Origin: a virus
Taxonomy: Duplodnaviria; Heunggongvirae; Uroviricota; Caudoviricetes
Direction: 5' to 3' (one strand)
IMG/VR virus record: IMGVR_UViG_2778261535_000015
Coordinates: 1 to 9,800 of that record
Length of the DNA stretch: 9,800 nt
Part shown: positions 1-9,800 of the stretch, one piece after another
Position numbering within the stretch: the first letter of the stretch is position 1
How the letters are laid out: the number at the start of each line of letters is the position of its first letter
Made by a program: the position numbers and the translations under genes
Notes under the pieces: model-generated
The model's database searches: none
Told to the model about the DNA's origin: nothing
What the model saw: only the letters and a program-made list of their open reading frames with translations

Positions 1-318
1 ATGAAAAAGATAGCTGCTATATCATTAATTAGTGTTTTTCTTATGTCTGGGTGTGCTGTGCATAATGATGAGACAAGTATCGGTAAATTTGGCCTTGCAT
101 ATAAAAGTAATATTCAGCGTAAACTCGATAACCAATACTACACCGAAGCCGAAGCTTCTTTAGCCAGGGGCAGAATTTCTGGTGCAGAAAATATAGTAAA
201 AAATGATGCAGCTCATTTCTGTGTTACTCAGGGCAAAAAAATGCAGATAGTTAAATTGAAGACAGAAGGTGCAGGATTACATGGCGTCGCTCGTCTGACA
301 TTCAAATGTGGAGAGTGA
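1..318 (+). CDS. Hypothetical small lipoprotein, probably host-encoded flank
   Basis: Complete 105-aa ORF starting at the window's first base. N-terminus MKKIAAISLISVFLMSGC looks like a signal peptide followed by a lipobox-like cysteine. G+C resembles the backbone. No family recognised. Confidence 0.5.
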   Translation: MKKIAAISLISVFLMSGCAVHNDETSIGKFGLAYKSNIQRKLDNQYYTEAEASLARGRISGAENIVKNDAAHFCVTQGKKMQIVKLKTEGAGLHGVARLTFKCGE

Positions 319-379
319 GAATATTTTTGGTAAGCGTCAAACATGCGCGTTCTGGTTGTGCTTAGCCGGAACCTGTGCG

Positions 380-412
380 AGCACGATGCCGTTACGTGAA
401 AGGCATCGTGCT
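380..412. repeat. Perfect inverted repeat / hairpin (about 11-bp stem, 11-nt loop) in the lipoprotein-integrase intergenic region
   Basis: GCACGATGCC (381-390) and GGCATCGTGC (402-411), with A380/T412 extending the stem. No U-tract follows on either strand, so it is not a canonical intrinsic terminator. Confidence 0.5.
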
Positions 413-475
413 ATGAAGGGAGATTCTATCGATGTGGTCAATGGAAGACGGTGACCAGGGATAGGGCTTATGCAT

Positions 476-497
476 AAAAAATAAGCCCGTGTAAGGG
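476..497. other. Putative prophage attachment-site core (attL); resembles the P2 att core as I recall it
   Basis: AAAAAATAAGCCCGTGTAAGGG lies about 85 bp beyond the integrase 3' end. The match to the P2 core is from memory, not a search. A second partial copy, AAGGGAGATT, is at 416-425. Confidence 0.35.
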
Positions 498-581
498 CGT
501 TTTTCAGGGTAGGTAACATGGGCTTTCAGCGGTGCAATGCGGGTTTGCGCGGCACGCAAGACCACTGAAAGCCATAATAAA

Positions 582-1589
582 CTACCCTACTGTGGACACA
601 GTGTGGACACTCATGGAGTCAACGCCACCACGTAGCGGATTGAGTGAAACAGCATCCTGAAGATACTCCGGGGCAAAGTGCGCATAGACCATTGTCTGCT
701 CTATGCGTGAATGTCCCAGTATTCTCTGCAGGGTGATGATACTCCCGCCGTTAATCATAAAGTGGGTAGCAAAACTGTGACGCAATGCGTGAGTTGCTTG
801 CCCGTCCGGTAGATCTGGTTTTACATCTTTCATTGTTCGCCTGAACTTCGGATATGAGGCATCAGGGAACAGATAACCTTTACCCGCAATCATTACAGCA
901 ACTTCCTCAGAGATAGGGACTGTGCGCGGTTTGTTCGTCTTTGTTTTAACGAACGTCACCCGATTCTGTATTACGTTCTCAGCTTTCAGTTTCGCGGCTT
1001 CACCCCATCGAGCGCCGGTACTTAAACAGAGGATCGCGATTTTCTTGTTGTCCCCGTCAAGATTGGCAAGTAACAATGTTATTTCTTCCTGCGTCAGATA
1101 GCCTGTTTCTGGTTTCTGCTCCTTGAGCTTTTTCATCCCTCTGAAAGGGTGTTCGCCAAAAAACAGTTCCGCATCAATTAGCGCAGTAAACATACCACTC
1201 AGGCAGGTAAGGTCGCGGTTAATACTGGCCGGTTTTATGCCTTGCCCTCTGCGAGTCATGCTGTACTGGCTAATAAGCGCTTTGGTTATCTGGAACGCGC
1301 AAGGGTCATCAGTGATCCGGGTAAAGATTTCAATCTTACCCAAATTGGATTTTCCGTGTTCTTCATGCTTGCCTTTCAGATCCCACCAGACTTTTGTTAA
1401 TTCAGACAGATGCCGCTTATCTGTCGGTTTAGCTAGCCATTCTTTATCGTGATGGTTGTATTGAGTGTGTTTCTCAAAAGCTACAGCCTCACTTTTCTTG
1501 TCAAATTTCCTGCGGATGCGCTTTCCGTTGCGCCCTGCAGGTCTGATATCCACTTCATAACGACCATCATCGAGTTTCTTAATTGTCAT
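582..1589 (-). CDS. int: Tyrosine recombinase / phage integrase, P2 Int family
   Basis: 335-aa ORF whose N-terminus MTIKKLDDGRYEVDIRPAGRNGKRIRRKFDKKSEAVAFEKHTQYNHH matches P2 Int as I recall it. C-terminal catalytic signatures are present: LSTGARWGEA (Arg), HALRHSFATHF (H-x-x-R) and VYAHF (nucleophilic Tyr). Same strand as and downstream of the repressor, as in the P2 Pc operon. Confidence 0.93.
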   Translation of the reverse strand: MTIKKLDDGRYEVDIRPAGRNGKRIRRKFDKKSEAVAFEKHTQYNHHDKEWLAKPTDKRHLSELTKVWWDLKGKHEEHGKSNLGKIEIFTRITDDPCAFQITKALISQYSMTRRGQGIKPASINRDLTCLSGMFTALIDAELFFGEHPFRGMKKLKEQKPETGYLTQEEITLLLANLDGDNKKIAILCLSTGARWGEAAKLKAENVIQNRVTFVKTKTNKPRTVPISEEVAVMIAGKGYLFPDASYPKFRRTMKDVKPDLPDGQATHALRHSFATHFMINGGSIITLQRILGHSRIEQTMVYAHFAPEYLQDAVSLNPLRGGVDSMSVHTVSTVG

Positions 1590-1734
1590 AAGACCCCCAA
1601 ATGAATGGTGCTAGGTTGAGTTTTCTTTGCTGCTGTTAATTTTCCCTTGCGCTTAGATTTCACAAACTTGTTGTGCTTGTTGTATTTGGCAACAAGTAAA
1701 CAAATTTTGTAATAAAGATGCGCCTGGTGAATGG

Positions 1735-2034
1735 TTAACCAATCTTTTGGTCTGAGTGCTGCGATGTTGTTACATCTTGCTCAAAGTGTGCGAGGGCCGG
1801 TGCTATCTGACCGGCTTCGGGAGCAACCTGATCGGTCATAAACCACAACGTGTATTTGCTGAACTGGGGCATTTGCAAAATCCTCATCATTACGTCCGTG
1901 GGCGGTGTAGAACGACCACTTTCGTAATAACTTAAAGTGCCATAGGGAATGCCTGTTAAATCAGCAAGTTGCTGTCTGCTGAGATACTCAGACTTTCTGA
2001 TGAGTACAATTTTCTCGTTTAAGGCGTTTGACAT
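1735..2034 (-). CDS. C: Immunity repressor, P2 C-like (99 aa)
   Basis: 99 aa, the same length as P2 C. Helix-turn-helix-like segment SRQQLADLTGIPYGTLSYYESG near the N-terminus. Lies between int and cox, divergent from cox. Confidence 0.85.
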   Translation of the reverse strand: MSNALNEKIVLIRKSEYLSRQQLADLTGIPYGTLSYYESGRSTPPTDVMMRILQMPQFSKYTLWFMTDQVAPEAGQIAPALAHFEQDVTTSQHSDQKIG

Positions 2035-2150
2035 GGTGTTTAGATCTCAATACTATTTGATTTAGATGTAGACTGTTTGATGTTTAGAAATGAACATCAA
2101 AAGCAACTATAAGCCATTGGTGACGATTCTTAAACTTGTGAGGGCCTTAA
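2035..2150. promoter_or_regulatory. Divergent early/repressor promoter-operator region (Pe/Pc switch) with phased direct repeats
   Basis: Three copies of TTTAGA(T) begin at 2039, 2061 and 2083, exactly 22 bp apart, flanked by TTTGAT half-repeats. The region is bounded by the divergent C and cox start codons. P2 C is known to bind direct repeats around the Pe -10 region. Confidence 0.6.
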
Positions 2151-2426
2151 ATGGTTAAACAGATCGCGTTAAGCACAGATGCCGTCCCATATCAGGAGTT
2201 CGCAAAACTCATTGGTAAAACACCGGCAGCGGTGAAGGGGATGATTGAAAAAGGAAAGCTACCTGTAGTTGAAATGACCGATCCGCAATCAACTTCCGGG
2301 CGGGCAGGTGAGTACTGGGTCTATCTTCCAGCCTGGAACAACGGCATGAAAATGGCGTATGAGAGCCGCCCGAAGGAAATTAGGGAAGGGTGGTTAATGT
2401 GGTTGGGTCTGGGCAATCCATCATAA
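2151..2426 (+). CDS. cox: Cox-like excision directionality factor / Pc repressor (91 aa)
   Basis: 91 aa, the same length as P2 Cox. The segment GRAGEYWVYLPAWNNG...AYESRPKEIR.GWLMWLGLG resembles P2 Cox as I recall it. GAGGG ribosome-binding site 6 nt upstream of the ATG. First gene of the plus-strand early operon. Confidence 0.85.
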   Translation: MVKQIALSTDAVPYQEFAKLIGKTPAAVKGMIEKGKLPVVEMTDPQSTSGRAGEYWVYLPAWNNGMKMAYESRPKEIREGWLMWLGLGNPS

Positions 2427-2448
2427 GCAACTTACAGGGTTGAATAAA

Positions 2449-2796
2449 ATGGACACGGCAAAAATCTTTAAACTCTCAGATAGTCATACAGCGTTATCAA
2501 ATGTGTTTATACGGATTAAGGATAAAAGAACACCTTGCGGTAATTACTTTTTCCGTTTGGATAAGTTGGACTGCGTTTCGTTAGCAGATAATTCAGGACT
2601 AACACCATTAATTGAGGTTACTGGTGGGTATGTTGAACCCAGCGTCACTTATGAGCAATTCATGAGTTTTCTTTTTCAGGTATTTGATGACGTATCAAAA
2701 GGTGATAACAGCATCAGAGTTTATGAGTTGATTGTTGATGAAGAAACCGTGCGAGATGTACCACCTCGCACAAGAAAAACGATAACGCCACAGTGA
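2449..2796 (+). CDS. Hypothetical protein (about 116 aa), low-GC accessory gene
   Basis: The ORF track begins at a TTG at 2440; the ATG at 2449 is the more plausible start. About 30% G+C on the sampled line 2461-2520, against a much richer backbone. No recognisable motif. Confidence 0.5.
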   Translation: MDTAKIFKLSDSHTALSNVFIRIKDKRTPCGNYFFRLDKLDCVSLADNSGLTPLIEVTGGYVEPSVTYEQFMSFLFQVFDDVSKGDNSIRVYELIVDEETVRDVPPRTRKTITPQ

Positions 2797-2800
2797 TGGA

Positions 2801-3280
2801 TTATTTGAACCATTTACTAGATGGGTGAGTGTCACCAATGTGGTGCGTTTCCTCGAAAGATTTTGAGAAGTGCATGCCGGGGATAGCGACATCGGCTTGA
2901 TCCAGAATAGGAGCGTCGATAATGGCATTAAGGAAAAACTGGGCATTTTGCTTTGCTAATTCTAATGAGTCAAAGCCATTTCCTGAACTTTCGGTAACTT
3001 TAGACAGTTGTCCATTTTTTGAGATAAATAATTCCCAGCCCCATAGCGATTCATGCTGTTTTAAAGAAATAACTACAGATGGACAGTTTTCTGTATCGCC
3101 AGAATTAATATCGTCACCAGCCTTAATAAAGATTGGCGATTCCATAAGGCCTACAAAGTTCTCAAGGTCATCAATGGCTTTAGGTCTTGTTTCAAATAGT
3201 GGACTTTCAAAGAGGGGGGCACCATCGGAAAGCACCCAGTGTGATCCGTGGTCTTTTTTAAAAAATACATTGAATTTCAT
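2801..3280 (-). CDS. Hypothetical protein (159 aa), low-GC accessory gene opposing the early operon
   Basis: The minus-strand ORF 2801-3328 has an internal ATG at 3278-3280 preceded by AAGGAG at 5-nt spacing (reverse complement of 3287-3292), giving MKFNVFFKKDHGSHW.... Composition is protein-like. The overlapping plus-strand ORF 2922-3344 is low-complexity and rejected. Confidence 0.6.
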   Translation of the reverse strand: MKFNVFFKKDHGSHWVLSDGAPLFESPLFETRPKAIDDLENFVGLMESPIFIKAGDDINSGDTENCPSVVISLKQHESLWGWELFISKNGQLSKVTESSGNGFDSLELAKQNAQFFLNAIIDAPILDQADVAIPGMHFSKSFEETHHIGDTHPSSKWFK

Positions 3281-3305
3281 TACAACTCCTTCTGTGTTGG
3301 TGATT

Positions 3306-3345
3306 GTTATGCCTGATTCACCGCTCAAAGTTACACAGGCATAGC
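3306..3345. promoter_or_regulatory. Inverted repeat in the divergent intergenic region; candidate operator or promoter element
   Basis: TATGCCTG (3308-3315) and CAGGCATA (3336-3343) with a 20-nt spacer, extendable to 9 of 10 bp. Lies between the minus-strand gene start (3280) and the next plus-strand start (3419). Confidence 0.25.
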
Positions 3346-3418
3346 GATGTTATCACAGGAAACACGCGCCGGGCGTGGGGTCGTATCCCGGCATCTTTTC
3401 AATATGACGGAGATCATC

Positions 3419-3640
3419 ATGGACTTAACACAGTGCCCTTCACTCGCCAGCCTGCTCACCCACGGCCAGCAGATCACCCACCGTCAGCATCAACGTGGCT
3501 GGATTGAAACCCCGGACGGGAGGTTCTTCCAGCCGAAAGCGTTAGATGTTCAATTTGTTAAAAACTACCGTGTACCGTTCATGTCGCGCCCGCGTAATAA
3601 GCGCCGCTGGTTTTCCCGCTTAATGGGCATCTTTGCGTAG
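3419..3640 (+). CDS. Hypothetical small early-operon protein (73 aa from the preferred start)
   Basis: The ORF track runs 3347-3640. The ATG at 3419 has GGAG 6 nt upstream; the ATG at 3404 has no ribosome-binding site. G+C is backbone-like. Basic C-terminus RPRNKRRWFSRLMGIFA. Confidence 0.4.
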   Translation: MDLTQCPSLASLLTHGQQITHRQHQRGWIETPDGRFFQPKALDVQFVKNYRVPFMSRPRNKRRWFSRLMGIFA

Positions 3641-3655
3641 TTCGGGGAGGTGGTT

Positions 3656-4045
3656 ATGTTGATGGATAAGACAGAACAACAGCCAGGTCGCCGCCAGTTC
3701 TTAGAGCAACGGGCGCGGCTGCAAGCCAGTTTGAACGCCTCACGCGTGAATGACACTGCAACCCGTTTTAACCGCCTGGATGATGCCTGCAAAAAGGTGA
3801 TTTTCATCCTGGCAAACGATGCGTCCAGATACATAGTCGGAATGCCGAAGCTGACCGCCAAACAGCTGGGTTGTACTTACGAAAATCTAACCGAAAAGGA
3901 GCAAACGTGCCTTTTGATGGGCATTAAGCGCCTTTCCGAATTTGCAGCATCAATGCCGTGGGAATTTGAGGACTACGCCGCACCACGCGCCGAAATTCAG
4001 GCGATACGCGACAAACCACCCGCGCCAGATAACGCAGTAAATTAA
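3656..4045 (+). CDS. Hypothetical early-operon protein (about 129 aa)
   Basis: GGAGG at 3646-3650 precedes the ATG at 3656 by 5 nt; the ORF track starts at the GTG at 3650, which overlaps that site. The position corresponds to the P2 B / orf80-83 region, but no motif was recognised. Confidence 0.5.
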   Translation: MLMDKTEQQPGRRQFLEQRARLQASLNASRVNDTATRFNRLDDACKKVIFILANDASRYIVGMPKLTAKQLGCTYENLTEKEQTCLLMGIKRLSEFAASMPWEFEDYAAPRAEIQAIRDKPPAPDNAVN

Positions 4046-4115
4046 CAACTAACTACCCACAAAAAAGAAACAGGCGCTAACGCGTCGGGCTTCTTGCACC
4101 CTGGAGAAAGTAAAA

Positions 4116-5081
4116 ATGATTCGATCTCTCGTTAAATGGCCCGGTGGTAAAGGCCGCGTTATGCCTGATTTGCTGCCGATTCTGCCGAAAGCCGATTGCC
4201 TGGTGGAACCGTTTGTCGGCGGTGCTTCTGTTTTCCTCAATACTGAATATCGCCGTTATATCCTGGGTGATATCAACCCAGATTTAATTAACCTGTATCG
4301 CCAGATAACCCGCTGGCCTGATGCGGTGATCGACGCTGCTCGCCCACTGTTTAAAGTGTACGGCGATAAAGACGGCTATAAGTGGATCCGCGATGATTTC
4401 AACGCCCGCGCACGTGACCTACTGTCATTGCGCAGTGTGTTTGAAGATGGGCCGGACGCGGGCAAGATTCTTCGTGCAGCACAATTTCTTTACCTGAACC
4501 GTCACGGATATAACGGCGTAGTACGCTACAACCAACAGGGTGGATATAACGTTCCCTTTGGGCGTCACAAAACCCCGCCTTACTTCCCGGAAGAACAGAT
4601 CCGTTTATTCTCTGAAAAAGCTAACGACACGAAAGCCATTTTCGTGTGCTGCGATTTCCAGAGCACGTTAAAAATCATGATTGGTAGTGACGCGGTTATC
4701 TACTGCGATCCGCCATACCTGCCAACAAGCGAAACAGCTAATTTCACCCAATATCACACAGCCCCGTTTGGCATTAAAGAACATCGCCAGTTAGCTGCCG
4801 CCCTGCTGGATATTAACCGCCTTACTGGTTCGCCGGTGATCCTGTCCAATAGCGACACCCCAGCCACCCGCGAGATTTATCGCTCTTTCAACTTCCAGGA
4901 AATTATCGTTAACCGTTCTGTCAGCGCGAACGCCATTACCAGAGGGGCCGCCAGTGAAGTGATCGGCGTCCTCAAAGTCTGCGCGACTTGTCGCCGTGCC
5001 GGTGGTGGGTGCTGCCCTGACTGCGGCCCTTGTGCTGGTTATTCCGTGTGGGGTGGAACGGCTGACGAGGTGCTCTTCTGA
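4116..5081 (+). CDS. dam: DNA adenine (N6) methyltransferase, Dam family, with a Cys-rich C-terminal extension
   Basis: N-terminus LVKWPGGKGRVMPDLLPILPKADCLVEPFVGGASVFLN parallels the E. coli Dam AdoMet-binding region. The catalytic DPPY motif is in IYCDPPYLPTSETANFTQYHT. GGAGA ribosome-binding site 8 nt upstream. An extra tail of about 35 aa, CATCRRAGGGCCPDCGPCAG, follows the Dam-like core. Confidence 0.9.
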   Translation: MIRSLVKWPGGKGRVMPDLLPILPKADCLVEPFVGGASVFLNTEYRRYILGDINPDLINLYRQITRWPDAVIDAARPLFKVYGDKDGYKWIRDDFNARARDLLSLRSVFEDGPDAGKILRAAQFLYLNRHGYNGVVRYNQQGGYNVPFGRHKTPPYFPEEQIRLFSEKANDTKAIFVCCDFQSTLKIMIGSDAVIYCDPPYLPTSETANFTQYHTAPFGIKEHRQLAAALLDINRLTGSPVILSNSDTPATREIYRSFNFQEIIVNRSVSANAITRGAASEVIGVLKVCATCRRAGGGCCPDCGPCAGYSVWGGTADEVLF

Positions 5082-5302
5082 TGGCTAGCAAAATTAATAA
5101 CGGTCTTTCGGAATACCAGCGCGGCGCACTGGCTGCGCTTAACGAAGCCAAAACACTGGCCCTTGCACACGCAACGTTGGCGGGTGTTCTCGCCGGAAGT
5201 GAAGCCGCAAACACGCTGTTGATTTCTTTCAATGTGTTACTCGACCCGCTAATCGAAAAGCATTCCCAGCGGGAGGGTGATAGCGGGGCATCCAATGTCT
5301 GA
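5081..5302 (+). CDS. Hypothetical small Ala-rich protein (73 aa), translationally coupled to dam and A
   Basis: Its ATG overlaps the dam stop (TGATG at 5079-5083) and its stop overlaps the ATG of the replication gene (ATGTCTGA at 5295-5302). No motif recognised. Confidence 0.4.
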   Translation: MASKINNGLSEYQRGALAALNEAKTLALAHATLAGVLAGSEAANTLLISFNVLLDPLIEKHSQREGDSGASNV

Positions 5303-7910
5303 CACCGCTTTTGCATGGCCCTGGAACGCGCCGCGCCCAGCTATTGGCCTGTACACCTACGAACCGAAAAAAATCGCCCCGCTTGCAGGGGCGGTGGTAC
5401 ATCATCCAGCCGTAAAAAAACACATCGATCACATCTTCAAACGCGCCGGTTACAACCCCGACGAGGTTCGGGACCGTAACGCGCTTATCCAGGCGCTGGA
5501 CAGGTACGAACCGTGCGGCCTGCTACTGGCCGCCCATCAAAATATAATCCGGCAGGAAATGGAAGCCGCTAAAGCTACGACGGCAGCCTGGGTCAATACG
5601 CCGGAAGGTGTCGAAGCGCGTTTATTATCAGAGCCGTTCTTCATTCGTGAAGTCTGGCGTAAAAAAATTGAGTGGTTACGGGTCAACCGTGAAACCAGAC
5701 ACACCAATGATTTTCTTATGGGGACCGTGAAAAAATCATTGCTGCGTCTTGATGTTGTACGCACAAGGCAAGGTGTTTCGCCTGATATCACCGGCGAACT
5801 GGCTGCGTACTGGTTCGGGCGCTGGCAACGTCTGGCTGATTTCACAAAGCGGGAAGCACTGAGCGCCGCTAATGAGATCGCCAGCCGCATGGCTGAAATG
5901 CTGGGGACGGAATGCGAAGCCCTGGGACGGAATGTTTCAGACATGAACGTCGAAGAATTGGACTGGCTTTATTGCCACCTGGGCCGCGAAATGCTGGCGC
6001 TTCGCATTGTACCGCCTGCATGGTATGCGCCGTGGGAACGCGAGCGCATATGCACGGCCATTTTGCGTATGGCTTCGCCTGACTGGTGGGGGCGTAAAAT
6101 CTGGCGCTTGCGTTGTGACTGGCGCGAGAACCAGCTGCGTGCTGTTGGCGCGGTAAATAAAAAAGCGCACGCCTACGTTAGCGTTTCCAGCCTGATCGAG
6201 TGGCAGGAACAGCGCCGTAAAAACCGGGATTTTTTCAAAAGTCATGAACTGGTAGACGAAGACGGCAACGTTTCGTCGCTTGAGGAAATGATTAATAAAT
6301 CCACGTCTAACCCGGCTATTCGTCGCCATGAGCTTATGGCCCGAATGGCTGGGGTTGAGCTTGTCGCCCAAAGTCGCGGCGATGTTGGCATCTTCCTGAC
6401 CATCACTTGCCCGTCGAAATATCACAGTAATATTGCGTCCGGCCACCATAACGCCAAATGGAATCATTCCACCGTCGCCCAGGCGCAGCGCTATTTATGC
6501 CGAGTATGGAACCGGGCAACCGCCAAACTGAAACGCGAAGATTTGCGCCCTTACGGCTTCCGCGTCGCTGAGCCGCATCATGATGGGACACCACACTGGC
6601 ACGCATTGCTATTTATGCCACAAGAGCAAGTTAAAGCCACGGTTGCGATCCTTCGCGCCTACTTCATTGCGGAAGACCGCGACGAGCTGGGCCGCAATAC
6701 CGGTGCTCGTTTCAAGTCAAAAAAAATGGACCCACGGAAAGGGTCAGCAACGGCGTATATCGCGAAATACATTTCGAAGAATATCGACGGCCACGCGCTG
6801 GCCGGTGAACTGGACGACGAAAGCGGCAAGCCGCTGAATGAAACAGCCAAATATGCAATGGCCTGGGCGTCACTTCACCGCATCCGCCAGTTTCAGCCCA
6901 TCGGACAGCCGCCCATATCGGTTTACCGCGAGCTGCGCAAACTGAGCAATCAGATCACGACCCGCCAGAAAATTGACAATACCTTCAAGCGCGGTGCGCC
7001 GTTGCTTGTGGATCCTGCAATGGATGCGGTTTGCGCCGCTGCCGATGTCGGGTGCTTTGCTACCTACATCATCCGCCAGGGTGGTGTTTTGATCCCGCGT
7101 GAAAACTATGTCGTCCGTCTGGCCTATCAGCCAGCTGATGAAATGAATGCTTATTGTGAGATCCCCGAAAAGGTTTTCGGGGTCTGGTCGCCGCGTCTGG
7201 GTGATGCCTCCCGTATTTGCACCCGTCTGGTTAAGTGGAAAATCCGCGCCAAATCCAAAGCTACCACCGAGGCCAAAAATGGCCCCGGTTTGGGGGTTGA
7301 CCTTTTGCCGTCGCCAACCGGCGACGCTTGGAGTTCTGTCAATAACTCTACGGAAGCCGAAAAAATCACCAATTTTTCGCCTGATGTGGAGGATATGACA
7401 GAAGAGTCAGAAGAAGAAATCGTCGATTTTGAAAATTTGGACCAGTCAACGCGGCGCAAATTGATGCGGCGACTACGTGAAACACCATTCAAAAGGCAGA
7501 AAAGCGGATCGCCTTACGAGCTAGGAAGCGAATTAGATGCCGCCTGGCGTTCTGCCGTGGAAAAAACCGAGGCCAGATCGGCGGCTGAAAAAGCCAAGCG
7601 GGCAGTTCTTGCCCCTGCGGTTGCCAGTCTGCTGGCTGATGCGGCGTTGTGTTTGGTTGAGATTTCAGAGATTCAGGCCGTTTCGCTGTTAATGGGGAGC
7701 CGTCTGGCTATTGGCGGAAAAGTTTATCAGGCCAGTGCTGGCGGACAGTTGATAACGCGTCAATTGCCTGATGAGTCACGGACGGTGAAAAAATTATGGG
7801 AACGTTTACGGGATAACCACGGCATTGATGCCACGCGCCTGCGGTTTGATCCGGTCGGGGAGTATCAAAAAATGCTGGCGGATGCGGAAGATTACCACCA
7901 AAAAGAATGA
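5295..7910 (+). CDS. A: Rolling-circle replication initiation endonuclease, P2 gpA-like (HUH superfamily)
   Basis: HUH metal-binding motif EPHHDGTPHWHALLF (about 6580-6612). Paired catalytic tyrosines in ATAYIAKYISKN (Tyr codons at 6756-6758 and 6768-6770), resembling the phiX174/P2 gpA active site. The ORF track starts at the GTG at 5277; the ATG at 5295 is preferred because it overlaps the upstream stop. Position after the early genes matches P2 gene A. Confidence 0.9.
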   Translation: MSDTAFAWPWNAPRPAIGLYTYEPKKIAPLAGAVVHHPAVKKHIDHIFKRAGYNPDEVRDRNALIQALDRYEPCGLLLAAHQNIIRQEMEAAKATTAAWVNTPEGVEARLLSEPFFIREVWRKKIEWLRVNRETRHTNDFLMGTVKKSLLRLDVVRTRQGVSPDITGELAAYWFGRWQRLADFTKREALSAANEIASRMAEMLGTECEALGRNVSDMNVEELDWLYCHLGREMLALRIVPPAWYAPWERERICTAILRMASPDWWGRKIWRLRCDWRENQLRAVGAVNKKAHAYVSVSSLIEWQEQRRKNRDFFKSHELVDEDGNVSSLEEMINKSTSNPAIRRHELMARMAGVELVAQSRGDVGIFLTITCPSKYHSNIASGHHNAKWNHSTVAQAQRYLCRVWNRATAKLKREDLRPYGFRVAEPHHDGTPHWHALLFMPQEQVKATVAILRAYFIAEDRDELGRNTGARFKSKKMDPRKGSATAYIAKYISKNIDGHALAGELDDESGKPLNETAKYAMAWASLHRIRQFQPIGQPPISVYRELRKLSNQITTRQKIDNTFKRGAPLLVDPAMDAVCAAADVGCFATYIIRQGGVLIPRENYVVRLAYQPADEMNAYCEIPEKVFGVWSPRLGDASRICTRLVKWKIRAKSKATTEAKNGPGLGVDLLPSPTGDAWSSVNNSTEAEKITNFSPDVEDMTEESEEEIVDFENLDQSTRRKLMRRLRETPFKRQKSGSPYELGSELDAAWRSAVEKTEARSAAEKAKRAVLAPAVASLLADAALCLVEISEIQAVSLLMGSRLAIGGKVYQASAGGQLITRQLPDESRTVKKLWERLRDNHGIDATRLRFDPVGEYQKMLADAEDYHQKE

Positions 7911-7999
7911 ATTCAATCACGCTATCCGTCGCAGCTGGTTGTGTCGGTTGGTGTGATTCTGCGGGGATGGGTGGTGCAGTGCTCGAATTGATAGGAAGT

Positions 8000-8249
8000 T
8001 GCATGTAACATTTTTCTACGAAGCGCGATAAATTAATAATTCTAAAATGAGTCTGTCAGGTTACTCAACTAAGAGTTCTGCTAACTTATCCGCATTTCTG
8101 TCATTCTTAAGGGTAGAAGACCTATCAAAAAATTGAATTAGTGTATATCTCACATCACCACACTGTGGCTGTAGATAAATGTTACTATTTTGTATATCGT
8201 AGTTGTCACTTATTCAAAATGGTTACACCTAAAAATTTCAAGGTAGAAA
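8000..8249 (+). promoter_or_regulatory. AT-rich leader / putative promoter region for the cargo gene
   Basis: Abrupt composition shift near 8000. Multiple TTGnnn and TAtAnT-like hexamers, and a weak AAGGTAG ribosome-binding site before the ATG at 8250. No single -35/-10 pair could be assigned confidently. Confidence 0.3.
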
Positions 8250-9800
8250 ATGGACGAGCATATTTCTGAATTCCTTTTTAATAATTACCGTGAAGACAAT
8301 CATGCAATGAAACTATTAGCTTGGTTGGTTATTGATAAGAATAATACAGCGAATCGGATTACGGCTCGCCTCAAGCATGCAGTTGAAAATCAAAAAGTAA
8401 TAACAAAGCCTCGTTTTATTCGCAGAGTTGATAAGTATCATAAATTTTATAATTTGAACCGGCCTCAACCGCTAAATGTATTAAACTCAAGTAAAAGAAT
8501 TCACTCATTACAGGTTTGTGATTTTCGAGGTTTTGGGCGTCTCACGGATGAAGATTTAGGTGTGAAATTTAAATTTAATAAGTTAAATAATATTTTCTTT
8601 GCTCCCAATGGAGGTGGAAAAAGTAGTTTGTGTGAGGTTCTTGAATATCAAACGACAGGTGATATTAAAGAGGCCGGTAGAAGAAAAACTTCAATAAAAA
8701 ATTATATACGAAGAAATGGGAAACATATTATAAGCTTATTAGATCATACTGGTAAGCCTATTCAAGCAAATCCAGATTATAAGTATAATTTTATAGATAG
8801 AAACAGACTGCAAGAATTTTCATTGTTAGGGTCTAATGATACAAAATTTGGTGAGAGGGATGTCCTTGCGGCTCTAGTTGGATTGGAAAATTTTGATGAT
8901 TTTTTATCAATGCTAGTTGCGCCAAGAAGTTTTAATGCCCTTAGTTTTATTAAAAATGAGCATGCGAATAAACTGGAATCTCTTGAGTCTCAGCTTGAAA
9001 GACTAAGGATAAGCTCTTCTGAAAATAACGCTGAACTAAGATCTATTAAATCAGAAATTATAAAATCTCTTGGCTGTGACTTTAAAAATCTTAGCGAGAG
9101 ATACATTGATAATGTTGTTAGAATAAAGTTGCCTCATATTAAAAAATATCATTTGAAATTGAATGAAAAAAAAGAACAGTTAAAAAAAGGGATTCCTTCA
9201 GTAGAGATTCCTTTAGAACATTCTCGCAGGATTTTGGCTATATTATGTAATTTATTGCAGAAAAAGAAAAGAATAGAGACAAAACTCAATGAGATTGTTT
9301 ATGATGCTAATAGCATTGCATTATTTAAATTGTCCAAGAAAATATTGACCGAACAGAAGTATAGTGCTTGTCCTCTTTGTAATACATCTTTAGCCGAAGT
9401 GAATAAAGATCCATTAGTTAACGCTATAGATATACTAAACTCTTATGTGCATGTTACAAACTTACAAACATGTCTCAATGAAACTTTAGCACTTATTCAG
9501 AAGTTTACTACTATAGTGTCAGATGCTTTGAGAGCATTTCTTATTTCACCTGTTAATGTAAATGTTGATTGTGATTTTAAAGCGCTGGCAGATATATCAA
9601 ATAATATAAGTGTAAGTAATGACGATGTAATTCTAGGTTATATGCTGTCTTTAGATGATATTTTAAAGTCATGTGGTACATTAGATTTGTATAATGAGAA
9701 AGCTAAACAACATAATGTAATAATAAAAAAAACGGAGAATACATTAAAAAAAATAATTTCAAGAATCAACATCTCTCAAGTTTCAGTATATTATATTTAA
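8250..9800 (+). CDS. Hotspot cargo protein: P-loop (ABC/SMC/Rad50-like) ATPase, 516 aa; candidate anti-phage defence gene
   Basis: Line counts give 19/60 and 13/60 G+C within this gene against 37/60 inside gene A. Walker A FFAPNGGGKSSLCEVLEY (about 8601-8650) is preceded by the beta-strand pattern IHSLQVCDFRGFG typical of RecF/SbcC/SMC heads. A coiled-coil-like region follows (LESLESQLERLRISSSENNAELRSIKSEI). CPLC motif at 9369-9380. Stop TAA at 9798-9800. Sits directly downstream of gene A. Confidence 0.75.
   Translation: MDEHISEFLFNNYREDNHAMKLLAWLVIDKNNTANRITARLKHAVENQKVITKPRFIRRVDKYHKFYNLNRPQPLNVLNSSKRIHSLQVCDFRGFGRLTDEDLGVKFKFNKLNNIFFAPNGGGKSSLCEVLEYQTTGDIKEAGRRKTSIKNYIRRNGKHIISLLDHTGKPIQANPDYKYNFIDRNRLQEFSLLGSNDTKFGERDVLAALVGLENFDDFLSMLVAPRSFNALSFIKNEHANKLESLESQLERLRISSSENNAELRSIKSEIIKSLGCDFKNLSERYIDNVVRIKLPHIKKYHLKLNEKKEQLKKGIPSVEIPLEHSRRILAILCNLLQKKKRIETKLNEIVYDANSIALFKLSKKILTEQKYSACPLCNTSLAEVNKDPLVNAIDILNSYVHVTNLQTCLNETLALIQKFTTIVSDALRAFLISPVNVNVDCDFKALADISNNISVSNDDVILGYMLSLDDILKSCGTLDLYNEKAKQHNVIIKKTENTLKKIISRINISQVSVYYI

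Follow-up and report, generated by a model that had tools for sequence, protein, structure and literature searches.

A mobile convergent gene pair of low G+C content in a variable slot of the early operon of P2/186-like prophages

The 9,800 nucleotides of Caudoviricetes DNA considered here (positions 1 to 9,800 of IMG/VR record IMGVR_UViG_2778261535_000015, hereafter the window) represent the left end of a P2/186-like (Peduoviridae) prophage adjoining yegR, and carry two tail-to-tail open reading frames (ORFs) within the early operon, ORF1 on the plus strand (2449-2796) and ORF2 on the minus strand (2801-3280). We found that the two constitute a mobile, low-G+C, two-gene convergent cassette, which resides in a variable slot of the early operon. 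Within this cassette ORF2 has, judging from conserved signals in the DNA, the appearance of an autonomous transcription unit of the opposite strand. The reading that we favor, to which we give somewhat less than an even chance, is that ORF2 is an accessory or exclusion gene expressed in the lysogen and ORF1 its early-lytic partner, the two being subject to reciprocal antisense control. An earlier note, made from the letters of the window, had taken the pair for a moron-type acquisition, an interpretation that proved correct in kind and too modest in scope.

Both ORFs are genuine genes under purifying selection. ORF1, the forward member, has its ATG at 2449 and its stop codon at 2794-2796 and encodes 115 amino acids; ORF2, the reverse member, has its ATG at 3280 and its stop codon at 2801-2803 and encodes 159. 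The coordinates given in the earlier note were thus confirmed, including the tail-to-tail junction of 4 nt between the stop codons (2797-2800), a spacing that ranges across homologous loci from a 9-nt overlap to a 20-nt gap. Comparison with 12 homologous loci yielded ratios of nonsynonymous to synonymous substitution (dN/dS) of 0.07-0.29 overall and of 0.07-0.26 for ORF1, and full-length conservation persists to about 25-45% identity. Over their full length the proteins match two PHROG families of unknown function, phrog_10410 in the case of ORF1 (2.8e-79) and phrog_9021 in the case of ORF2 (7.3e-111). In a collection of 5.8 billion proteins the homologs made up 33 clusters for ORF1 and 16 for ORF2, and an exhaustive profile search with ORF2 recovered 25 clusters at 50% identity among 1.84 billion representatives. 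A plus-strand frame of 140 amino acids (2922-3344) was rejected as a gene, being a shadow antisense to ORF2; it is the ORF2 frame that carries the purifying selection.

The pair stands apart from its surroundings in composition and orientation. The G+C content amounts to 38.8% for ORF1 and 40.2% for ORF2, against 49.6% for cox, 54.5% for fil, 51.5% for orf131, 52.4% for dam and 54.1% for the replication gene A, and the G+C content at third codon positions (GC3) is 34-36% as compared to 53-66% in the flanking genes. The low G+C of the pair was also seen in eight other loci. The earlier note had correctly placed both genes below their flanks, although its range of 30-38% is slightly too low for the genes as a whole (39-40%). 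From cox (2151) to the end of gene A (7910) all genes lie on the plus strand, ORF2 excepted, so that the note's picture of a gene reading against an otherwise co-directional operon holds; the insert, which it had located between cox and the replication genes, sits more exactly between cox (2151-2426, plus strand; Pfam Phage_Cox, 5.9e-43) and fil (3419-3640, plus strand; Phage_186_Fil). Likewise, the strong ribosome-binding site claimed for ORF2 was found as a Shine-Dalgarno sequence AAGGAG at 3286-3291 on the minus strand, 5 nt before the ATG. ORF1 follows cox after 22 nt within the early operon transcribed from the promoter Pe. As no separate promoter for it is evident, it should be made from this early lytic promoter.

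The mobility of the cassette is apparent from a comparison of nearly identical backbones. In the Citrobacter locus L004 and the Salmonella locus L008 the integrase gene, cox, the spacer, fil, orf131, dam and gene A are 96-99% identical to those of the window, and ORF1 and ORF2 are 78-82% and 72-74% identical, respectively, with synonymous divergence (dS) exceeding 1. A divergent pair in a near-identical backbone implies that the coding cassette was swapped as a unit. At every readable locus, representing about 15 alleles, the ORF2 homolog has an ORF1 homolog as its convergent neighbor, and the pairwise identities of the two proteins are correlated (r = 0.86). The loci that bear the pair were found in the genomes of Citrobacter, Salmonella, Kluyvera and Serratia, the ORF1 domain constituting the C-terminus of a 214-amino-acid protein in the latter, and on a number of contigs from metagenomes and IMG/VR; without exception they lie in the early operon of a P2/186-like prophage of Enterobacterales. 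Divergent pairs in E. coli, with an ORF2 identity of 33-45%, were confirmed by profile comparison at 1e-28 and 1e-45, and even an ORF2 homolog of 28% identity has a convergent neighbor, a 109-amino-acid protein whose gene overlaps by 4 nt and which aligns weakly yet in register with ORF1.

The allele of the window was recovered in 19 of 5426 complete E. coli genomes, at the yegR site every time, and two other alleles occurred in 2 and 0 of these genomes. When both proteins were compared by tblastn with 50,697 GenBank phage records, nothing matched; the known members of the family come exclusively from prophages and metagenomes. Neither an ORF2 profile nor a specific DNA pattern of the cassette found anything in the GTDB species-representative genomes. 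A loose DNA pattern combining hairpin A with the -10 motif (both described below) was run against IMG/VR; the matches listed were mostly due to chance, and the search yielded loci L074 and L179. Insertion sequences (ISs) of the IS3 family were observed at two independent sites in ORF1, corresponding to around 2514 and 2758-2761 of the window, the second of which lies within the hairpin T2 discussed below; examples are L002 (2745-3958) and L003 (2733-3946), both from genomes of Shiga toxin-producing E. coli (STEC). Such insertions affect ORF1 in 7 of the 19 complete E. coli genomes that carry the module, and ORF2 is intact in all seven. Other decayed copies are L036/L045 and L074.

The best-conserved part of the module across distant lineages is the 138-nt spacer between ORF2 and fil (3281-3418), which is 84-87% identical, as compared to 75-77% for ORF1, 70-76% for ORF2 and 73-78% for fil. 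On the minus strand it contains an extended -10 motif, TGATAACAT (TGnTAnnnT, 3347-3355), which is invariant in the aligned loci (T76, G77, T79, A80 and T84 in 17 of 17) and is likewise present upstream of distant or unrelated cargo. Hairpin B (3309-3342, minus strand, with arms 3336-3342 and 3309-3315) begins near the transcription start predicted around 3340; four of its seven pairs show compensatory change, and it would be the 5'-terminal stem-loop of the predicted ORF2 mRNA. Wobble-pair counts gave no decision as to the strand on which hairpin B forms. Further upstream, the GC-rich element 3363-3392 can fold as hairpin A1 (3368-3373/3387-3392) or as an overlapping alternative, A2 (3363-3367/3373-3377), with one covarying pair each (GC to AU and CG to UA). 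This element is situated just upstream of the ORF2 promoter motif and just before the ribosome-binding site of fil, around 25 nt before the fil start. Hairpin A and its alternative A2 lie outside the predicted ORF2 transcript, and a U-tract is not conserved on either strand. A role of hairpin A as a plus-strand terminator or attenuator before fil was rejected, considering the unconserved downstream U-tract and the unexceptional fold (z 0.19); A1/A2 marks the boundary of the cassette, and may function as a boundary or recombination element or, alternatively, at the RNA level within the Pe transcript. Comparison of the conserved hairpins with Rfam 15 gave nothing at gathering score and one chance-level match (E 4.1), and inspection of the ORF2 promoter region by eye revealed no LexA box and no C-operator repeats.

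The same promoter cassette is also found in front of unrelated genes on the reverse strand, at least five cargoes in all, which are uniformly low in G+C and each of which faces a forward partner convergently. These comprise, in L188, a 46-amino-acid protein plus a 160-amino-acid protein with two hydrophobic helices, facing a 101-amino-acid protein; in L185, a 73-amino-acid protein facing one of 241; in L189, a 64-amino-acid protein with a textbook terminator, facing one of 131; in L190, a 155-amino-acid 'ECs1072 family' protein facing one of 202; and in Citrobacter braakii, a 91-amino-acid protein (phrog_32592) facing an ORF1 fusion. L019 and L189 share one sequence as far as the end of hairpin A2, where they part, so that a breakpoint of cassette recombination coincides with this element; L023 and L190 are identical through hairpin B. 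The comparison with other P2-like early regions that the earlier note had called for bears out both absence and replacement, since in Salmonella phage SI7 cox overlaps fil directly and the pair is missing, and L185, L188, L189 and L190 carry alternative cargo. The cargoes of the slot gave no match to the PADLOC defence models, except for a marginal one to DrmC (E 0.006) for a single cargo. In the C. braakii lineage, which comprises 20 member sequences and has ORF2 replaced, ORF1 is fused in frame to a fragment with the motif YYNGTHAGN...WGMN (L012-L014, 5001-5790; L179), a motif otherwise seen in forward partners from different types of cargo (L188, 9222-9527; L185, 1992-2717). This fusion is a recombinant between two cassette types. 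As a separate observation, several of these early operons have, just upstream of the cargo slot, an ORF of around 140 amino acids whose likeness to the capsid-scaffold protease GPO is confined to the N-terminal part of the latter (L015, 1977-2396; L007, 7632-8057; L060, 1213-1644; L185, 1992-2717), and in L185 this ORF is fused to the forward partner.

Variable sites have been described in P2-like phages between gpA and gpQ (old/tin), at Z/fun and between the tail genes and CI (PMC9122126; bioRxiv 10.1101/2024.10.15.618418). The site between cox and fil is not among the hotspots listed in these two papers, and the sequence comparisons identify it as a variable slot that is undescribed as far as we checked. 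It shares with the P2-like hotspots a fixed position and a diverse, low-G+C cargo that is exchanged between near-identical backbones, but it differs in its location, within the early operon and bounded by cox on one side and by fil or DUF4761 on the other, and in carrying convergent pairs of a forward and a reverse gene.

The close spacing of the two stop codons had led the earlier note to conclude that there is no room for terminators. We found, on the contrary, that a terminator-like hairpin, T2, is contained within the last 20 or so codons of ORF1 (2749-2771, minus strand), in the codons for V-R-D-V-P-P-R-T. Its stem comprises 10-12 GC-rich base pairs and is followed on the minus-strand RNA by a U-rich tail, GGUUUCUUCAUC (2737-2748). 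A terminator scan flagged T2 as terminator-like with 12 pairs and the tail TTTCTTCATC. Across 15 homologous loci 92.6% of the positions are paired, and three pairs show compensatory change, including the synonymous replacement of CGA/CCT by CGG/CCC in ORF1. The strand can be specified as well: 22 cells of the alignment are G.U pairs on the ORF2 strand whose plus-strand counterparts would be C.A mismatches, and the folding energy is -18.1 kcal/mol on the minus strand (z -2.98) as compared to -14.7 kcal/mol on the plus strand. On the plus strand T2 is followed by an A-run, and the hairpin should therefore not stop transcripts from Pe. Between the ORF2 stop codon and T2 there is, in addition, a weak short hairpin (2788-2799) with a conserved T-run (2772-2781), both on the minus strand (2772-2799). 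Altogether, T2 is probably an intrinsic terminator or a 3' stabilizer of the ORF2 mRNA. Because it is located beyond the ORF2 stop codon and inside ORF1, the 3' untranslated region (UTR) of this predicted mRNA runs antisense over roughly the final 20 codons of ORF1.

The proteins themselves are soluble and mildly acidic, with a net charge of about -10 for ORF2. The structural model of ORF2 (predicted local distance difference test score, pLDDT, 84.7) consists of two beta-beta-beta-alpha-beta units and a low-confidence C-terminal tail, a tandem fold that may resemble YegP/DUF1508. The tail, with the sequence I-x-D-x-H-P-S, holds the most conserved residues of the family: D150 and P153, as well as W15 of the first repeat, are unchanged even in homologs of about 25% identity, and H152 varies hardly at all. 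Relative to the YegP-like proteins of UPF0339/DUF1508 (PDB 2k49 and 2k8e), ORF2 is around 50 residues longer and has an extra strand after each helix, and YegP is without the conserved C-terminal D-x-H-P-S tail. The alignment of ORF2 with YegP by hhalign, using a YegP sequence verified against 2k8e, was not significant (probability 1.5%, E 0.035), and a Pfam search of ORF2 at E <= 0.1 gave no match. Tandem DUF1508 proteins have no established function and have been described as pseudo-dimers; the homologs of yegP adjoin capK/capS regulators, and in the Menshen protein NsnA the tandem domain was proposed to be a sensor of single-stranded nucleic acid (PMC12065111). For ORF1 the AlphaFold model (pLDDT 76) displays a beta-rich domain with one long helix, for which fold comparison gave no credible or confident structural neighbor. 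PADLOC-DB v2 contained no defence match for ORF1 or ORF2 at E <= 1, and the literature search returned nothing on the RefSeq accessions or PHROG ids of the pair.

In the model that we favor, the C repressor would shut Pe in the lysogen and ORF2 would be expressed as a moron, the 3' UTR of its mRNA dampening leaky expression of ORF1 through the overlap with the last 20 or so ORF1 codons. Upon induction or infection, transcription from Pe would yield ORF1 and traverse the whole of ORF2 in antisense, and this read-through may silence ORF2 by transcriptional interference and the formation of RNA duplexes. Given Pe-driven ORF1 and antisense silencing, the two proteins would be expressed in a mutually exclusive manner. 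As to what they do within such a scheme, our confidence is low: our guess is that ORF2 might be a prophage-expressed accessory or exclusion factor that binds a protein or nucleic acid via its putative YegP-like tandem domain and conserved C-terminal tail, and that ORF1 might be the cognate early-lytic partner, which neutralizes or replaces ORF2 so that the lytic growth of the phage itself is unblocked. Such roles would agree with the exchange of alleles as cassettes and with the kind of cargo that takes the place of the pair elsewhere.

A moron, in the definition of Hendrix and Juhala, is an extra gene with its own promoter and terminator and an atypical composition, which is expressed from the prophage. 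ORF2 resembles such genes in its promoter motif, terminator-like hairpin, low G+C, presence or absence between relatives (as in SI7) and orientation against the lytic operon, and together with the swapping of the cassette and the shared slot this upholds the moron-type acquisition put forward in the earlier note. The insert differs from morons in being a fixed convergent pair instead of a single gene, in having the putative ORF2 terminator embedded in the coding sequence of the partner, and in sharing its promoter/5'-UTR cassette with unrelated cargoes. The regulatory part of the model also has precedents. Genes antisense to lytic operons with a promoter of their own are typical of accessory loci expressed in the lysogen (PMC7067206), and the switches of P2 and 186 are known to operate by interference between convergent promoters (PMC1904263, PMC5001618). 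The Pe/Pc switch of P2 and the pR/pL switch of 186 are similar to the present arrangement in that face-to-face units in the same phage family would be expected to interfere with each other (PMC1904263, PMC5001618), and the OOP RNA of lambda, which overlaps the 3' end of cII, provides a likeness for the 3' antisense overlap with an early gene (PMC7067206). They differ from it in that both converging units encode conserved proteins here, with promoters about 900 bp apart and an interference that we infer. In terms of proposed logic, the closest parallel is an exclusion system with self-immunity. In phage P22 the exclusion gene sieB is accompanied by esc, which is encoded inside sieB and confers such self-immunity. 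The likeness is confined to the idea of a self-harmful prophage factor countered by a phage-encoded partner, as there is no sequence or structural relationship and ORF1 lies on the strand opposite to ORF2.

Several observations weigh against this model. A generic sigma-70 scan of 3281-3418 called no promoter, because there is no -35 match, and the putative ORF2 promoter is predicted solely from conservation. The U-tract after T2 is imperfect and is missing in the most distant homolog, L060. The co-divergence of the two proteins could be explained by physical linkage alone, and the C. braakii variant, with ORF1 kept and ORF2 replaced, indicates that the partnership is not obligate. Finally, neither protein is matched by Pfam, NCBIfam, PADLOC or PDB sequences, and no defence, toxin or anti-defence family was recognized among these.

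Of the other explanations, chance ORFs or a decaying, functionless remnant would be compatible with the rarity of the window allele in complete E. coli genomes (19 of 5426) and with the existence of decayed copies; we nevertheless give this almost no credence, as the dN/dS values, the full-length conservation down to about 25-45% identity and the conservation of the regulatory elements effectively refute it. A toxin-antitoxin or addiction module, in which one protein is toxic and the other neutralizes it so that the pair stabilizes the prophage or aborts infection, seems quite improbable to us. It would agree with a pair of small proteins that is co-inherited in an accessory slot of the prophage and of which many divergent alleles have been swapped together. 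Convergent transcripts that overlap at their 3' ends, moreover, resemble the type I systems of Bacillus prophages. The genes are, however, convergent with separate signals and not co-transcribed in one operon as expected for a type II system, and no toxin or antitoxin family in Pfam, NCBIfam or PADLOC matches. Furthermore, ORF1 is disrupted by insertion sequences at two sites with ORF2 intact in seven complete E. coli genomes, and ORF2 is replaced with ORF1 retained in C. braakii. The loss of either gene from viable lysogens argues against an addictive pair, and a classical toxin-antitoxin system of this kind is disfavored.

The position of the module, immediately downstream of cox in the switch region, raises the question whether ORF2, or the leftward transcript as such, acts against Pe and biases the balance of C and Cox, like pE/CII of 186 or OOP of lambda, with ORF1 as an early regulator. 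The predicted leftward promoter indeed converges on Pe, and, in the manner of OOP and cII, the predicted 3' UTR of ORF2 lies antisense to an early gene (PMC7067206). Yet the strand-specific hairpin would stop or stabilize the ORF2 transcript short of cox, SI7 and other P2-like phages do without the module, and both proteins are mildly acidic and have no recognizable DNA-binding motif. In addition, the slot takes up unrelated cargo, including a membrane-type protein, which fits better with accessory functions than with core regulation, and we regard such modulation of the lysis-lysogeny decision as rather improbable. The same likelihood is assigned to an anti-defence cargo, with ORF1 or both proteins inhibiting host immune systems and ORF2 serving as an acidic decoy. 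ORF1 would be among the first genes transcribed from Pe, ORF2 is acidic with a net charge of about -10, the allelic diversity is as high as is typical of arms-race genes, and tandem DUF1508 domains are proposed sensor domains in defence proteins (PMC12065111). On the other hand, a gene needed during infection is not expected to lie opposite to the early operon behind a promoter of its own, no known anti-defence protein matches, and the match to AcrIF5 was no better than many unrelated beta-beta-beta-alpha folds listed alongside it.

The remainder of the window has the gene order of a P2/186-like left end, with an E. coli-like host flank (best identity 98.1%). It starts with yegR (1-318, plus strand), followed by the integrase gene (582-1589, minus strand) and the gene of the C-type repressor (1735-2034, minus strand); downstream of fil there are orf131 (3650-4045), dam (4116-5081), orf73 (5081-5302) and the replication gene A (5277-7910). 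The intergenic region between C and cox (2034-2088) contains the direct repeats TGGTGTTTAGA and TGATGTTTAGA, 44 nt apart, with the similar sequence TGATTTAGATG in between; they surround a 10/12 sigma-70 match at 2028-2056 and are probably the operators of the C repressor at Pe. The dam methylase (region 4116-5302) comprises 321 amino acids, its C-terminal tail being rich in Cys and Gly, and an extra ORF of 73 amino acids (5081-5302) comes next, whereas in an E. coli relative the Dam protein has 296 amino acids and its gene directly abuts gene A. After gene A and a spacer (7911-8249) an ORF of more than 516 amino acids and 30.6% G+C, resembling ATPases, starts at 8250 on the plus strand and runs beyond the end of the window (8250-9800). 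It occupies the position of the classical gpA-gpQ (old/tin) hotspot of P2-like phages, displays weak matches to AAA_23 (2.9e-4), to LmuB of PADLOC (3e-08) and to the N-terminal ATPase of PtuA, and had zero megablast matches among the 5426 complete E. coli genomes. We take it for a probable defence-type cargo of rare occurrence.

If the favored model is true, the pair would represent a compact and reusable design, in which one strand of a cassette of around 1 kb is read in the lysogen and the other during lytic growth, and which would allow a prophage to carry a factor that damages phages, or the prophage itself, and yet remain inducible. A broader reading, which we hold to be possible though unlikely, is that the junction between cox and fil or DUF4761 forms a fourth cargo slot of these phages, where cassettes with a portable promoter/5'-UTR are exchanged at the boundary hairpin and encode pairs of a lysogen effector and a lytic neutralizer whose expression is mutually exclusive through antisense. 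In that event the slot would supply a built-in self-immunity for prophage-encoded defence, with ORF1/ORF2 as its commonest and most diversified family. The favored model, if true, would also make the slot a new site in which to seek defence, exclusion or counter-defence genes in P2-like prophages. The two classical hotspots of these prophages have already yielded many systems, and the present slot adds at least six candidate pairs of cargo genes that are unrelated to one another and to which no function has been assigned. Even if ORF2 is merely an ordinary moron, it would still provide a clean case of a terminator embedded in a convergent coding sequence.

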